This document shows positions 1,532 to 16,952 of a DNA stretch of 51,064 nt, one piece after another. Position 1 is the first letter of the stretch. Every line of letters starts with the position of its first letter. The translations under genes and the position numbers were made by a program. The DNA lies in the IMG/VR virus record IMGVR_UViG_2534681675_000014. One strand, written 5' to 3'. This stretch comes from a virus. Taxonomy: Duplodnaviria; Heunggongvirae; Uroviricota; Caudoviricetes. The notes below the pieces were generated by a model. The model searched no databases. It was not told where the DNA came from and worked only from the letters and a program-made list of their open reading frames with translations.

Positions 1532-1741
1532 TTAATTTGAATACAATGCAATTCTCGAGGACTGAAGTTTCTCGCAATTAAAATTTATCAGTTTTACTTT
1601 CTGCTCTCTGGAAACGCCTGCTTCTTTTTTACCTGAGAGCATTTTTTCGCATTCTGATTTCGTTAGTTTAGATTTTGAATATCTTGTCCAGTTAGTAGGA
1701 GTGCCACCTTCCTTTTCAATAGTGGCGGTAATTTTATACAT
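1532..1741 (-). CDS. Small protein, YdaC-like (69 aa)
   Basis: ORF 1532..1813; ATG at 1741 preceded by GGAGGTG Shine-Dalgarno; this start overlaps the ralR stop by 8 nt. Confidence 0.5.
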   Translation of the reverse strand: MYKITATIEKEGGTPTNWTRYSKSKLTKSECEKMLSGKKEAGVSREQKVKLINFNCEKLQSSRIALYSN

Positions 1742-1928
1742 GAACACCTCCATTATTATTTCCAGTGGTTCGTTTATTCCATCTTTCGAGTGCTTCTTTT
1801 TCACTTCCACCATAACCGGTTCGGGATTCGCATCCGTTACACTTCGCTCGGTAATATCCTGAAATGGCTTTCACCGTTACTGATGGACAACCACAAAATG
1901 GACATGGTTTAACATTGTCATATCTCAT
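1734..1928 (-). CDS. ralR: RalR/Lar restriction-alleviation protein, type I toxin (64 aa)
   Basis: Product MRYDNVKPCPFCGCPSVTVKAISGYYRAKCNGCESRTGYGG... recalled as Rac RalR; ORF extends to 1967 with alternative upstream starts. Confidence 0.75.
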   Translation of the reverse strand: MRYDNVKPCPFCGCPSVTVKAISGYYRAKCNGCESRTGYGGSEKEALERWNKRTTGNNNGGVHV

Positions 1929-2794: not shown

Positions 2795-5387
2795 TTGCAT
2801 ATTCCTTAGCCCTGCGGGGCAGTGATAATGTCTTAATAGCTGGCCATTCATCGGTATTCAGGCAGTCAGACAGGGTTCGCAGATTGCGGTGATATTCCTG
2901 TTGACCTGCCAGTTTTGCTTCTTCGCCCATCATGAAAATTTCAACCGGATAACGTCCGCACTCAATAGTTGTGCTGGCAACCAGAAAAACGAAAGTTGGC
3001 TGCACTCCAAACTGTGCTTCATAACCGTCACTGTAGAATGCATCCTGAACGTGATAGCGGTAGTCGTAATAAGCGGTTTTGAATCGTTGAATATCCGCCG
3101 TAGTTTTCACGTCCATGATCCAGTGAAATTCAGGGATAATTTTGTCCGGACGGCACCGACACAAAATTCCTGTTTCAGGATCTTCCCAGTAAATTGATGA
3201 TTCAGCGTGTCCGGCGCTTTCAACAAGCCATTGCCCCAGCGGCAAAGCCATAACGCTTTGATACATGAGTTCAATTTTCCGGCCTTCTTCCGCAGTGATA
3301 ACTGTTTTTCCTGTGCTTGCGCATTCCATCAGAAACGCTTTCTCTTCTTCTTTTCCGGCGTTTGTACGGCGGTTAAATTCAGGTGCTACGATAAAGCGGT
3401 TACTGAATTCTTCCGGTTCAAGTACCCGGCAGTGGAAAGCGGTTCCTAAATCGAGCGTTTTTGTCTTTGTGGTGTCCACGGGGGCATTTTTACGCCACAA
3501 ATATAGTGCCGGAGTATCAGCAATGTCATCGAGCTGAGACTTACTGACACCGGGACCCGCGTGGTAATTCTCATTCGAAATTCCGTAATAAATACCTGGC
3601 TCTATGTCTTCTACGATTACGGGATCTGCGACTTCGCCAGTTTCATCACTGCAATCGCGATGCGGATCGCTGCCAGCATTCTCATTGTGCGGATGTTCAG
3701 CGCCTTCCATTTCCTCCGGATCATTTTCCTTAGCTTCAACCTGACTCTCTTCATCGAATGTTTCCTGGTATGTTGCGTCGCCCATCACCGCACCACAGTC
3801 AGGGCAGTTATCCCCGCCAGTCTGGCCGCAGGCATTGCAGGCTATTTCCGGTTCCTGTTGCACTACTGGCTCAGGTTGATTCATATCCGGGCTGGTTTTT
3901 TCCGTTTCTGGCTGGTTCTGGTACACACAATTGCGAGTCTGGATCCCCTTTACCCATTTCGGATCGTTCGGGTCGCTAATTCCGTCAACAAATTCACCAC
4001 GTGATGCAGCAAGCAATTTATCGGCATCGACAGGATCTTTTGATGGAATGTTTTTCCGGGCTTCATGGAGTTCTGCCCGCAGTTCCTGATATTTCGCATC
4101 AACAGAATTTACCTGTGACTGAGCATCCAGCGGCTGCGTGTCCTGATGATGTTCAGTTGCGTCCGGTTCCATTGTTTCAGCCTCTCCCTGTTCAACTGCC
4201 GTTGTTCCAGATGGTTGCGGTTTTTCTTCATCATCCTGTTTTCCTTCTTCTGTTACTCGCTGCGGCATCGGGGCAGAGGAGCGACCGCAGGCAATATCCA
4301 CGATTTCCGGATCAGGGTTGGCATGATCGGTTTCAGTCAGTACTTTGTTCAGATATTCAGTGACGTGCGCGGGGATGACCTCGATCCCAATTGGTGCTTC
4401 TTTTACGGACGCAACCACGATGGCGCGGGAATAATCCAGCCCGCCAGGCATGGTGATGAATTTGTCGCGGAAAACAGAAAAGGGCGGTTTATTTTCAGCG
4501 ATAATTTCCTCAATGCGTTTAGCGTGTGCCGGATGAAGGTTATAGATGTCCAGATCCATTGAACGGGCCAGTACGCCAGTGGCTACGTCGCGCGCCAGTG
4601 ACGTCAGATCGTGTACGAAACCTTCGCCGCGATCGGTGAGGTTTCCGCCGCCAGCATTAGCACCGGAAGCCGTGCGAGTGATGTGTGAAACACGATTACC
4701 CTTCATCCACTCTTTTGTCAGCAGTCCTCGATCGGTGTAGTCAGCGTTCAGGTATGCTTCGAAAAAAGCAGTTATCAGTCCCAGGTTTGAATTACCAGGA
4801 TTAGGGAAAACTTTGTCAGTGTCACGAACCAGTTTGTGGAGTTCGCGAATTTCCAGCGGGTCGAGCAGGCTGGTTTTGTGGGAAACAGCCAGGGCAGTAA
4901 CAGCCGGTAGTTCTTCAGCCCGAGCAATGTGTAATGCCTGGAGTCCTTCGCGTGAAACGTGCGTTACCGGTTTTTCGCTGCCGTGTTGAGCAAGCCAACG
5001 AATGGGCAGTTCCTGGCCAGAAATTGGGAGTAGCATATTCTCCTCAATCTCAGTCATGTCTTCGCCGTTGACGTTGGTATTGCCTTGATAGTGAGCGTTG
5101 TCTGGTGCTGCTCCCGGTTTTAGTTCCCATGTCATGGAGTCTTTGCTGAGTTGATAGCGTTCACTCCAGGTAAAATCGATCTCACCTTCAGCGGGCAGGT
5201 CATTAACGACAGGAAAATTCGTGGCAACAGCTTTAAAATAGCTGCTCAGTTTTTTACCTGACTTAACGATCAGGTAGTCCAGAGTGGCACTGGTCGATTC
5301 AAAATCGTTGCTTGCCCACAGGACGACGTCAGGTTCACCGGATGATTTTTTCGCTTTCCGTAACAGGAAGAGTGGTTTTGTGCTCAT
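2787..5387 (-). CDS. recE: RecE exonuclease VIII
   Basis: 866-aa ORF, sequence recalled as Rac RecE; recE-recT order. Confidence 0.9.
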
Positions 5388-5488
5388 TGTTTTTTAACCT
5401 CAACTCAGATTAAAATTCGTTTTGTTCAGTGAATGATCTTGCCGGATACACACTGTTCATAGCCTGCGCCATACGCAGGCTATTTCTT

Positions 5489-5764
5489 TCAGATTTCACC
5501 TTTTAATTTCATTGCAATTAGAGTTGCCAGAAATTCGGCTTTTTTTTCTGCGGGCAGATTCTTTCCGATATGCACCAGGCACATTTTTTTGACACCTTCA
5601 TCAAGTGTTTTTACGTTGCCTGATGGACCATCGATATCAACCACAGTGAATGGGGTTTCTTTATTTTCTGTTTTAATTACGTAGCCAATGCGCTTTCCTT
5701 CCAGATTCACCTCGTGAACAATGTCATCGGTAGTTACAACAGTGGCTTCATAATTGGTAATCAT
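5489..5764 (-). CDS. racC: RacC-like small protein (91 aa)
   Basis: ORF 5489..5812; internal Met MITNYEATVVTTDD... gives 91 aa; position upstream of recE as in Rac. Confidence 0.65.
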   Translation of the reverse strand: MITNYEATVVTTDDIVHEVNLEGKRIGYVIKTENKETPFTVVDIDGPSGNVKTLDEGVKKMCLVHIGKNLPAEKKAEFLATLIAMKLKGEI

Positions 5765-6009: not shown

Positions 6010-6242
6010 CACCATGACTCCGCCTTTACAGGTAAACCATCACGACCGAGGAAGACTTTAATCATGCGGTCAGTAATGCATGTTTTTGTGGTCAGGTTAC
6101 GAATATATAGTTTTCGCTTTTTAATATTGTTTGCCGAGGCAATATATGTCCGGCCTTCATGAAGAACATAATCGCCAGGAGTCACACACTGACGTGGTAT
6201 TTCATCAGTTCCGAAGTGATGTGCAATCATAATTATCTCCAT
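6009..6242 (-). CDS. kilR: KilR-like FtsZ inhibitor / host killing protein
   Basis: 77-aa ORF (73 aa from [14 protein letters not shown]...); recalled as Rac KilR; early-left operon position. Confidence 0.7.
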
Positions 6243-6671
6243 TTTTACAAATGAACTTTGTTGATGCGGTGCCTGGTGCCTCCAGGTGACTGCAACCAGT
6301 TAACAATTACAGTCGGCTTTCCCACCCAAACCAATAAGGACTAACATGACTTTTAACTGTGCCACGTGCGCTTAGCCGCATTCACCGCATCACAAAATTC
6401 ACTTTAAAAAGGGCGGACATCAGCCGAACTTCAAGAAAAAAACTGATGCCGCCAGGACTACACACAGCAATGTCGTTATTTACAACCGGAGGCGCACTCC
6501 CACCATTTAAATTTAACAGACAAGACCGACTCTTTATGGATATCGGAAATGCGCCTTCGTGTTGTGCCCGGTTTTATTTCACCACCTCCGGGCTTCGGTG
6601 GTCTCGGCTATACCCCTACAGCGAGAGCTTGTGTTAACATTTCAATACCCTTACAGTTGAGAGTTATTGAT

Positions 6672-7160
6672 ATGTTGGATGTATTTACTCCATTGTTGAA
6701 ACTTTTTGCTAACGAGCCACTCGAAAGACTTATGTATACGATTATCATTTTTGGTCTCACTCTCTGGCTGATACCGAAAGAGTTTACTGTCGCATTCAAT
6801 GCTTATACTGAAATACCTTGGCTCTTTCAGATTATCGTTTTTGCCTTTTCTTTCGTGGTCGCCATTTCCTTCTCAAGATTGCGAGCACATATTCAAAAGC
6901 ATTATTCATTACTACCAGAGCAACGAGTATTGCTTCGTTTATCTGAGAAAGAAATCGCTGTATTTAAAGATTTCCTTAAAACAGGAAATCTTATTATCAC
7001 TTCTCCTTGCCGTAACCCGGTTATGAAAAAATTAGAACGGAAGGGCATCATTCAACATCAGAGTGATAGCGCAAACTGTTCTTATTATCTCGTCACCGAA
7101 AAATACTCCCATTTTATGAAGTTATTCTGGAACAGCAGGAGTAGACGTTTTAATCGTTAG
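6672..7160 (+). CDS. sieB: Superinfection exclusion protein B (inner-membrane)
   Basis: 162-aa product from ATG 6672 (MLDVFTPLLKLFANEPLERL...), hydrophobic segments; only plus-strand gene in the early-left region. Confidence 0.8.
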   Translation: MLDVFTPLLKLFANEPLERLMYTIIIFGLTLWLIPKEFTVAFNAYTEIPWLFQIIVFAFSFVVAISFSRLRAHIQKHYSLLPEQRVLLRLSEKEIAVFKDFLKTGNLIITSPCRNPVMKKLERKGIIQHQSDSANCSYYLVTEKYSHFMKLFWNSRSRRFNR

Positions 7161-9195: not shown

Positions 9196-10278
9196 ATGGC
9201 TAACGCCTGGCTCAGATTATGGCATGACATGCCAAATGACCCTAAGTGGCGAACAATTGCCAGGGTGTCAGGGCAGCCAATTGCAACAGTGATGGCAGTG
9301 TATATCCACCTCCTGGTGAGCGCGTCACGAAATGTCACGCGAGGTCACATTGATATCACGACAGAAGATTTGGCAAGTGCGCTCGACGTGACAGAAGAGG
9401 TAATTGATTCAATTTTGCAGACGATGCAGGGGCGGGTACTTGATGGTGATTTAATCACTGGATGGGAAAAACGCCAGGTGCTTAAAGAGGACAACGGCAA
9501 TATTTCGCAAACCGCAAAATCTCCTGCAGAGCGCAAGAGGGCGCAGCGAGAGAGGGAAAGAAAGCGGGAACAAAATGGCGATTGTCACGGCGCGTCACGA
9601 AATGTCACGCACATGTCACGACGAGTCACGACAGATAAAGATACAGATAAAGATACAGATAAAGATACAGATCAAGAAGATCAAAATACTATGGTCCATG
9701 GCGTAAAAAACGCCACGAACCAGGCAGGGGATGTTCAGACCGTCAATCCTGGTCAGCCAGCAGGCACGACACCGGAAGCCGATTCAGCGTATGCGCTGAA
9801 AGCCGATTCGGGCGCTGTGCAGCAGGTGATGACCGCAAGGCCGGAGCAATCACACCAACTGCAGCAGCCTGAAGCCGATTCCGCCATTCAGCGGGAAGCC
9901 GATCGGGTAGTCCCGGAAAACACCGGGCAGTCTGTGGGACGAGTGGATTATCCGGATGTGTTCGAACAGGTCTGGCGGGAGTACCCGTTGCGTGCCGGGG
10001 CAAACCCGAAGAAATCCGCTTTCAGTGCCTGGAAGGCCAGATTACGTGAGGGGGTGCCACCAGAGGCCATGCTGGATGGCGTTAGGCGTTACGCAAGATA
10101 CCTGGCGGCTACCGGGAAAACGGGAACGGAATTTGTTCAGCGAGCGACGACGTTTTTTGGACCGGACCGGAATTTTGAGAACCCCTGGTTGCTCCCGGTA
10201 AGCGGCACGAACAACCAGCGTTGTGTGAATCATATTTCTGAACCGGATACCGAAATTCCGCCTGGCTTCAGGGGGTAA
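9196..10278 (+). CDS. Putative replication initiator (O-like), iteron-containing
   Basis: 360 aa from ATG 9196; position after the immunity switch; internal GTCACG iterons and DKDT-repeat linker; acidic/basic linker then C-terminal domain. Confidence 0.55.
   Translation: MANAWLRLWHDMPNDPKWRTIARVSGQPIATVMAVYIHLLVSASRNVTRGHIDITTEDLASALDVTEEVIDSILQTMQGRVLDGDLITGWEKRQVLKEDNGNISQTAKSPAERKRAQRERERKREQNGDCHGASRNVTHMSRRVTTDKDTDKDTDKDTDQEDQNTMVHGVKNATNQAGDVQTVNPGQPAGTTPEADSAYALKADSGAVQQVMTARPEQSHQLQQPEADSAIQREADRVVPENTGQSVGRVDYPDVFEQVWREYPLRAGANPKKSAFSAWKARLREGVPPEAMLDGVRRYARYLAATGKTGTEFVQRATTFFGPDRNFENPWLLPVSGTNNQRCVNHISEPDTEIPPGFRG
9321..9364. repeat. Iteron-like cluster 1 (GTCACG-type hexamers at about 10-bp phasing)
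   Basis: Hexamers at 9324, 9334, 9344, 9355; 20-mer cgcgtcacgaaatgtcacgc (9321..9340) repeated exactly at 9591..9610. Confidence 0.5.
9583..9670. repeat. Iteron-like cluster 2 plus three 12-bp tandem repeats (candidate origin core)
   Basis: GTCACG at 9584, 9594, 9604, 9615, 9625, then ataaagatacag x3 (9635..9670); inside the replication gene. Confidence 0.5.
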
Positions 10279-16573: not shown

Positions 16574-16656
16574 TTTCTTACGTATAAACTGCTTCAATTT
16601 CGCTATGCTTCGCAAAGCTGTATCGCGAGGCGAACAATCCCACGGATACAAAAAAA

Positions 16657-16677
16657 CCACCTAAAGGTGGTTTTTTT
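16657..16677 (+). terminator. Rho-independent terminator (tR-prime-like) downstream of Q paralog 2
   Basis: ccacc-taaa-ggtgg stem-loop followed by T7. Confidence 0.6.
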
Positions 16678-16952
16678 GTATCTGTAAGAAATGAGATATT
16701 AGTGTTGATATATTGTTGTTGTTTTGATGCATATTTCTATGCCTAAATAATGTGATGTAGATCACTTATATTATTAATGCTGTATTTTAATCTATTAAGG
16801 ATCTTGAGGTGTTCCCCAGGGCGGGGGTGGCAAGGTATAACTGTTTAGCGGGAGGGAAGCCACAGTGTATTAGTCAGGAGCTGATATACTTCGGGAGGCA
16901 CCCGACGCCTCAGATCATAATAATAATGACCTCTTTAGCTAACCATCTTTTT

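Follow-up and report, generated by a model that had tools for sequence, protein, structure and literature searches.

Introduction

In bacteriophage lambda, the OOP RNA is antisense to the cII-O junction, and the duplex that it forms targets the sense mRNA for cleavage by RNase III. GadY is a cis-antisense RNA to the gadX-gadW spacer, and when it pairs, the bicistronic mRNA is processed within that spacer. In the Rac prophage itself, the small RNA RalA, an antitoxin that constitutes an Rfam family, acts in trans on ralR mRNA through 16 nt of complementarity. Here we describe a G+C-rich hairpin in the spacer between racC and recE of the Rac prophage of Escherichia coli K-12 that, in view of an RNA 3′ end mapped in vivo, is probably the terminator of an RNA antisense to racC-recE.

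The locus resembles several of the described systems in part. As in E. coli intrinsic terminators, a G+C-rich 10-bp stem with a short loop adjoins a U-tract, and an in vivo 3′ end lies inside that tract; unlike them, the racC-recE hairpin ends no annotated gene, lies on the opposite strand inside a prophage operon and has an interrupted U-tract. The likeness to lambda OOP and its terminator tO is one of arrangement: a lambdoid phage, a short antisense RNA over an early-operon gene junction and an intrinsic terminator of its own, with a length of 77 nt for OOP in lambda versus approximately 64 nt predicted for the Rac antisense RNA. The two RNAs share no sequence similarity, however. The Rac RNA lies in the leftward recombination operon and not at cII-O, it overlaps an intergenic leader instead of a coding 3′ end, and its 5′ end is predicted. 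GadY, too, is encoded opposite the spacer of two co-transcribed genes, but it is Hfq-associated and RpoS-dependent, whereas the Rac locus is absent from an Hfq RIL-seq based list of sRNAs.

RalA (1557..1735, plus strand) is comparable in being a plus-strand sRNA within the leftward Rac operon region that overlaps opposite-strand genes, although, unlike RalA, the Rac spacer RNA matches no Rfam family. Elements of the REP/BIME type are also stable G+C-rich palindromes between two genes of one operon. The racC-recE hairpin differs from them in being single-copy, in having no REP consensus and in carrying a one-sided U-tract with a mapped 3′ end.

Results

A stable hairpin in the racC-recE spacer

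The DNA analyzed, hereafter the window, is a stretch of 51,064 nt that represents the Rac prophage of E. coli K-12. Its position 1 is MG1655 coordinate 1412000 and the orientation is identical, so that window positions were obtained by subtracting 1411999 from MG1655 coordinates. The region of interest, 5388..5488, is exactly the whole racC-recE spacer of 101 nt, bounded by the racC stop codon (5489-5491, minus strand) and the recE ATG (5387-5385, minus strand) (Table 1). racC and recE have been described as a functional blocker/trigger pair for retron toxin systems. In a wide protein search, the RacC family was narrow and confined to Escherichia and Shigella.

Table 1. Positions of genes, predicted elements and the mapped RNA 3′ end at the racC-recE junction (window coordinates).
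Feature	Position	Strand	Remarks
recE CDS, 866 aa	2787..5387	-	downstream gene of the pair; MG1655 annotation
Putative sigma-70 promoter, TTGTTT-18-TAAAAT	5387..5416	+	overlaps the recE start codon and ribosome-binding region
Second hairpin, recE leader (UUUUAAUCU / AGGUUAAAA)	5392..5415	-	pairs part of the Shine-Dalgarno GAGG
Predicted antisense RNA, ~64 nt	5424..5487	+	first stem-loop (5427-5455) plus probable terminator; 5′ end inferred from promoter prediction
Stem-loop of the probable terminator, ATAGCCTGCG-CCATA-CGCAGGCTAT	5459..5483	+	perfect 10-bp stem, 6 G-C pairs, 5-nt loop
U-rich tract, TTCTTTCAGATTTC	5484..5497	+	first 5 nt non-coding, remainder over the racC stop and last codons
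RNA 3′ end	5487 (MG1655 1417486)	+	Term-seq, Adams et al. 2021, supplementary file 1; class 'antisense' to racC
racC CDS, 91 aa	5489..5764	-	upstream gene of the pair; MG1655 annotation

A sequence-only reading of the window had reported a stable hairpin between racC and recE. Both its placement and its stability were borne out: according to the MG1655 annotation the hairpin lies 6 nt past the racC stop codon, with 71 nt separating it from the recE ATG, and with the flanking A/T pair included its stem is a perfect 10 bp. The palindrome is indeed present in the spacer, but the position given for it, 5465..5487, was off, the true site being about 5 nt to the left. The segment tagcctgcg occupies 5460-5468, ccata 5469-5473 and cgcaggcta 5474-5482, and the full arms, flanking pair included, span 5459-5468 and 5474-5483. 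In a 33-nt context the folding energies are -16.7 kcal/mol (plus strand) and -18.4 kcal/mol (minus strand), with z-scores of about -5.6 and -5.9, respectively, against dinucleotide shuffles.

Hairpins of this quality are scarce in the window, which contains three distinct perfect examples whose stem has 10 bp or more and whose loop measures 3-8 nt. When each stem/loop combination is scored separately, 5 are observed, compared with 0.37 per window in dinucleotide-shuffled sequences. Across 1595 E. coli genomes the racC-recE hairpin behaves as a single-copy element, with a median of 1 and a maximum of 2 places per genome, and a dispersed repeat of the REP/BIME type was ruled out on this ground.

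An RNA 3′ end in the plus-strand U-tract

The absence of a U-run after the stem on the transcribed minus strand, also part of the earlier reading, is correct; the next bases there are GAACAGUGUG. The plus strand is different. The minus-strand AAAGAAA that precedes the stem becomes UUCUUUCAGAUUUC after the stem on the plus strand, and the plus-strand tail UUCUUUCA is U at 5 of its 8 positions and directly follows the stem. The U-tract of K-12 is interrupted (UUCUUUC). A consensus scan for terminators found the site terminator-like on the plus strand only; it is the second entry listed for the first 12 kb.

A strong plus-strand RNA 3′ end has been mapped at this site by Term-seq (Adams et al. 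2021, eLife, PMC7815308). It corresponds to the U at 5487, 4 nt past the last stem base and 7 nt past the G+C core, and the sequence given around the 3′ end in the table of Adams et al. matches the window exactly. The site has three entries, distributed across the sheets for LB OD 0.4, LB OD 2.0 and M63, and the average counts in two of these three entries are 185664 and 146140; for comparison, the LB OD 0.4 sheet lists 66698 for sokC and 6222 for sgrS (PMC7815308). Searches for 'racC' and '14174' returned no match in any of the four supplementary files of Adams et al., the table of Rho termination included (PMC7815308).

The plus strand of the spacer carries a G+C-rich stem-loop, an adjoining U-tract and an in vivo 3′ end within that tract. 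Because the Term-seq 3′ end falls in the U-tract, we read the hairpin as an intrinsic terminator that works in vivo on an antisense transcript. The palindrome at 5459..5483 and the T-run that follows it are thus probably a plus-strand, Rho-independent terminator for an RNA antisense to racC-recE, which is likely to come from the putative promoter described below; the independence from Rho is a property that we infer. The 3′ end could in principle also be produced by exonuclease trimming back to the stable hairpin instead of by termination. In the sequence of events that we propose, a rightward RNA polymerase would cross the recE leader, transcribe the G+C-rich stem and then UUCUUUC, and release the RNA at 5487. 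The earlier judgment that the hairpin does not look like an intrinsic terminator holds for the leftward operon, whose strand has no U-run, but fails for the plus strand, where the 3′ end at 5487 marks it as a probable one. The corrected reading of the element is that of a terminator, but of the opposite strand.

Conservation of the hairpin in four spacer versions

We compared the spacers of 246 loci from E. coli, Shigella, E. ruysiae and IMG/VR prophage contigs, together with those of distant racC homologues. Four diverged spacer versions were distinguished, designated A (the version of K-12), B, C and D, and all four have a hairpin at the same position. A U-rich tail follows it on the plus strand in 4/4 versions and on the minus strand in 0/4, the minus-strand tails being GAACAGUG, CUGAGUGA, UGAGUCAA and UAAACGGU. 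Because the tail bases fall outside the coding sequence, in the gap that follows the racC stop codon, coding constraint is not the explanation for them.

Within versions A and B, the loop is hypervariable and the stem is kept. Version A has four loops, which in the minus-strand reading are TATGG (K-12; 151 loci), its exact inverse CCATA (10 loci), TATGC and TATGA. Version B, GCCTGCAC-NNN-GTGCAGGC, occurs with five loops and is followed on the plus strand by UUUCUUUUUU(U); its U-tract, TTTCTTTTTT(T), is longer than that of K-12. Between A and B, the 39-nt segment that separates the hairpin from the recE ribosome-binding region is unalignable. In version C, whose RacC is 71% identical, the plus strand reads GGCCUGCGC-UGA-GUGCAGGCC, forming 10 pairs with one G.U among them, and continues with UUUUUCCC (U5). 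On the minus strand of this version the G.U becomes an A.C mismatch, which leaves a stem of 8 pairs and a 7-nt loop. Version D (RacC 67% identical), represented by one low-coverage metagenome contig, carries a weaker stem of different sequence in the same place, with UUAUCUUC as its plus-strand tail.

When the 13 distinct hairpins of versions A and B were aligned, 91.6% of the cells paired, compared with 20-41% after the partner had been slid by 1-3 columns. Three pairs are altered on both sides in this alignment, namely an A-U/U-A exchange, a G-C/A-U exchange and one loop-proximal pair. As these changes stem from few independent events, we regard the covariation as supportive rather than strong, and the narrowness of the RacC family puts deep covariation out of reach. 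Like version C, one version A variant (4 loci) forms a plus-strand G.U that becomes an A.C or C.A mismatch on the minus strand. The opposite case is found in one version B variant (2 loci), whose loop-closing pair is U.G on the minus strand and C.A on the plus strand. Judged from these cases, the wobble asymmetry leans towards the plus strand. A RacC-based search of viral contigs yielded identical copies only, and the phage collection contributed six records, all at least 90% identical.

The loop (5469..5473) exists in two reverse-complementary forms, which on the plus strand are CCATA (K-12) and TATGG (10 of about 165 version A loci), and ACT and AGT stand in the same relation among the loops of version B. 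From their sequences, these forms look like the products of a flip-flop inversion between the inverted repeats, an event at the DNA level.

Several individual loci deserve mention. A Rac-like prophage of E. coli PapRG-04-4 (locus L007, 1584..1609) has a gene for a 'DNA breaking-rejoining protein' in place of racC and a spacer of 24 nt, and the hairpin, the U-tract and the TAAAAT -10 element are absent from it together. This joint absence fits a single unit of hairpin, U-tract and -10 element that is linked to racC. In a Logan assembly (SRR23625871, locus L246, ~1770..1800), the 5′ arm of the hairpin is replaced (GAAATAATACCGTATGGCGCAGGCTAT) and the translation of the called gene does not match the query; the change probably arose at the palindrome as an artefact of assembly or mutation. 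A record named Actinobacillus phage vB_Apl-pPE4 (PP818812.1, locus L005) contains a Rac-like racC-recE region 91% identical to that of E. coli, and metagenome bins labelled Candidatus Nanosynbacter and 'Proteobacteria bacterium' (L013 and L015) are identical in sequence to K-12 Rac over the ~165-nt racC-recE junction compared. These look like cases of host misassignment or contamination.

A putative promoter and a predicted antisense RNA

A putative sigma-70 promoter for the antisense RNA was located at the recE start, 43 nt upstream of the stem, with TTGTTT at 5387-5392 as the -35 element, a spacer of 18 nt and TAAAAT at 5411-5416 as the -10 element. Ranked with a simple in-house sigma-70 weight matrix, it is the best plus-strand site within ~560 nt upstream of the hairpin (scan 4900-5470) and lies at the 99.98th percentile of the window. 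Its -35 element matches at 3/6 positions, and a stricter consensus promoter scan does not list the TTGTTT-18-TAAAAT site. The -10 element TAAAAT does not vary among 31 spacer variants, is the same in version C and reads AAAAAT in version D.

On the basis of this prediction, the RNA most likely starts ~64 nt upstream of its 3′ end, from the sigma-70 promoter at the recE start. Given the weak -35 element and the missing entry in the stricter scan, it could also be longer and start inside recE. The predicted 64-nt RNA folds with -24.9 kcal/mol (z -4.9). Versions B and C adopt the same two-hairpin fold despite their sequence differences, and the contig of version D is less clear (z -1.0).

No plus-strand gene is annotated at this place in MG1655 RefSeq, though the neighbours ralA and kilS are. 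A 12-kb scan with Rfam 15 gave no match here, and the best scores of a focused Rfam scan, 21.7 bits for FasX against a threshold of 100 and 18.9 for the Phe leader against 55, amount to noise. As in the Hfq RIL-seq based list, the locus has no entry in the small-RNA list of Shinhara 2011 or in SMRT-Cappable-seq. No plus-strand ORF of at least 20 aa ends before the terminator, and the sole short plus-strand ORF, 5429..5506, extends beyond the mapped 3′ end; a small-protein mRNA was ruled out, there being no suitable ORF.

The literature that we searched contained nothing on this element, and the stem sequence itself was also unmatched. A paper on Rho terminators that deals with Rac concerns a site in racR, not the racC-recE spacer, and the spacer is unmentioned both in the OxyS/kilR paper and in a 2025 paper on Rac transcription factors. 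The element points, in the most thoroughly studied strain of E. coli, to an abundant RNA that has no gene name, no Rfam family and no discussion in the literature searched.

Alternative roles of the palindrome

The hairpin will fold in the minus-strand mRNA as well, apparently without stopping transcription there. When RacR is silenced or titrated, racC, recE, recT, ralR, xisR and intR are derepressed together. Under these conditions the rise is about 40-fold for racC and more than 70-fold for ydaC (now rcbA), a gene located beyond recE, and an RNA-seq compendium groups ralR through kilR as one operon. Given the joint derepression of racC, recE and recT, nothing points to a strong leftward stop at the hairpin, in keeping with the lack of a U-run on this strand.

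The sequence-only reading had considered an element of RNA processing or stability, or an attenuator of recE. It is conceivable that the hairpin acts in this polycistronic mRNA, as an exonuclease barrier that stabilizes racC, as a processing signal for RNase III or RNase E, or as a structure that attenuates recE expression. Such a role could coexist with a plus-strand terminator. The hairpin is at least as stable on the minus strand (-18.4 kcal/mol), it is kept in all four spacer versions, and it directly follows the racC stop codon, a frequent site of mRNA stabilizers; intercistronic elements of this kind are known, for example REP in malE-malF. Uneven expression of racC and recE would also be sensible for a retron blocker/trigger pair. 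The same proximity tells against it, however: the distance from the racC stop to the stem is 6 nt in K-12 and 0 nt in version D, so short that a terminating ribosome, judged by the size of its footprint, would melt the 5′ arm. The co-induction of racC and recE on RacR loss also argues against it. Furthermore, a minus-strand role leaves the conserved purine run upstream of the stem, which is the U-run of the other strand, unexplained, and in version C one pair that persists as G.U on the plus strand is lost from the minus-strand stem. The Term-seq data contain no minus-strand 3′ end at 14174xx, which is weak evidence in that the operon was repressed in those cultures (PMC7815308). Overall, we consider a role of the hairpin in the leftward mRNA unlikely.

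We regard as very unlikely that the palindrome is an element of the DNA, either a site for a dimeric protein (GCCTGC-N7-GCAGGC) or one prone to cruciform extrusion, with the RNA 3′ end being incidental. The half-sites GCCTGC and GCAGGC keep a constant spacing of 7 bp in versions A, B and C, and the exactly inverted loop of 10 loci (CCATA versus TATGG) implies that hairpin events do occur at the DNA level here. Yet version D has a different stem sequence in the same place, a one-sided conserved T-run would go unexplained, the strong RNA 3′ end lies at the canonical distance from the stem, and there is no known protein for such a site, nor does the context suggest one.

Equally improbable, in our view, is a bidirectional terminator that would also halt some of the leftward transcription between racC and recE. 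Although the stem is perfectly symmetric and G+C-rich, and hairpins with a weak U-tract can pause or partly terminate transcription, a minus-strand U-run is present in 0/4 versions, the consensus scan contains no minus-strand listing for the site, and the genes beyond the hairpin are derepressed along with racC. Finally, single perfect palindromes do arise in 51 kb, and terminator-like sites in general are near their expected number (14 vs 12.3), but a chance palindrome of no function is extremely unlikely with ~0.001 such hairpins expected per 101-nt spacer, a hairpin conserved with compensatory changes across four diverged versions and an RNA 3′ end measured at it.

A possible effect on recE

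Silence of recE in wild-type K-12 defined the sbcA/RecET story. The classical sbcA deletions, which activate recE by fusion to racC, would presumably take out the racC-recE spacer. With the palindrome read as a plus-strand terminator, the promoter at the recE start would yield a two-hairpin sRNA fully complementary to the racC-recE spacer, and the terminator would keep antisense transcription out of racC and kilR. An effect of this RNA on recE is possible by analogy, and its function is speculative. By polymerase interference, or by cleavage of the duplex by RNase III, the convergent promoter and the complementary RNA would reduce what is expressed of recE from the polycistronic mRNA, on the pattern of lambda OOP or GadY. 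Attenuation of recE could in this way arise indirectly, through the antisense RNA.

In its most specific form, the proposal would be that a constitutive cis-antisense sRNA with its promoter on the recE start keeps RecE/RecT silent in lysogens and, through promoter interference and duplex-directed cleavage, sets the RacC:RecE ratio after induction. We put this forward as a doubtful, tentative model. If it were true, it would supply a regulatory layer missing behind the classical silence of recE in sbcA+ K-12, and the RacC:RecE ratio would be the balance of a retron-toxin blocker and its trigger. Control of recE by the antisense RNA would be a genuine if small contribution to what is known of prophage regulation, of relevance to RecET recombineering strains. 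If recE is not controlled in this way, the element is a well-behaved terminator that insulates antisense transcription.

Other elements in the window

The second hairpin of the spacer, in the recE leader (5392..5415), overlaps the putative antisense promoter. It is invariant in seven aligned loci, including one in which racC is replaced by another gene, and altered in a few variants from IMG/VR and from distant homologues. To judge from its pairing, this hairpin may limit recE translation.

Between kilR and sieB (6406..6503, minus strand), two Rfam matches below threshold were obtained, DicF at 6411..6466 (39.1 bits vs 48) and STnc100 at 6223..6409 (35.5 vs 47). The DicF-like match coincides with the annotated sRNA KilS (b4833), which by sequence looks to be a relative of DicF; it precedes kilR, the gene of a division inhibitor, much as dicF precedes dicB in Qin. 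At 16645..16682, a 17-bp perfect palindrome, GATACAAAAAAACCACC-TAAA-GGTGGTTTTTTTGTATC, is flanked by A7 and T7 and has the textbook shape of a bidirectional intrinsic terminator. The sieB CDS contains a 10-bp perfect palindrome at 6967..6992 that forms a strong hairpin, and near the racR end of the leftward region another strong hairpin, a terminator-like stem of 13 pairs with a weak U-tail, lies on the minus strand at 9692..9722.
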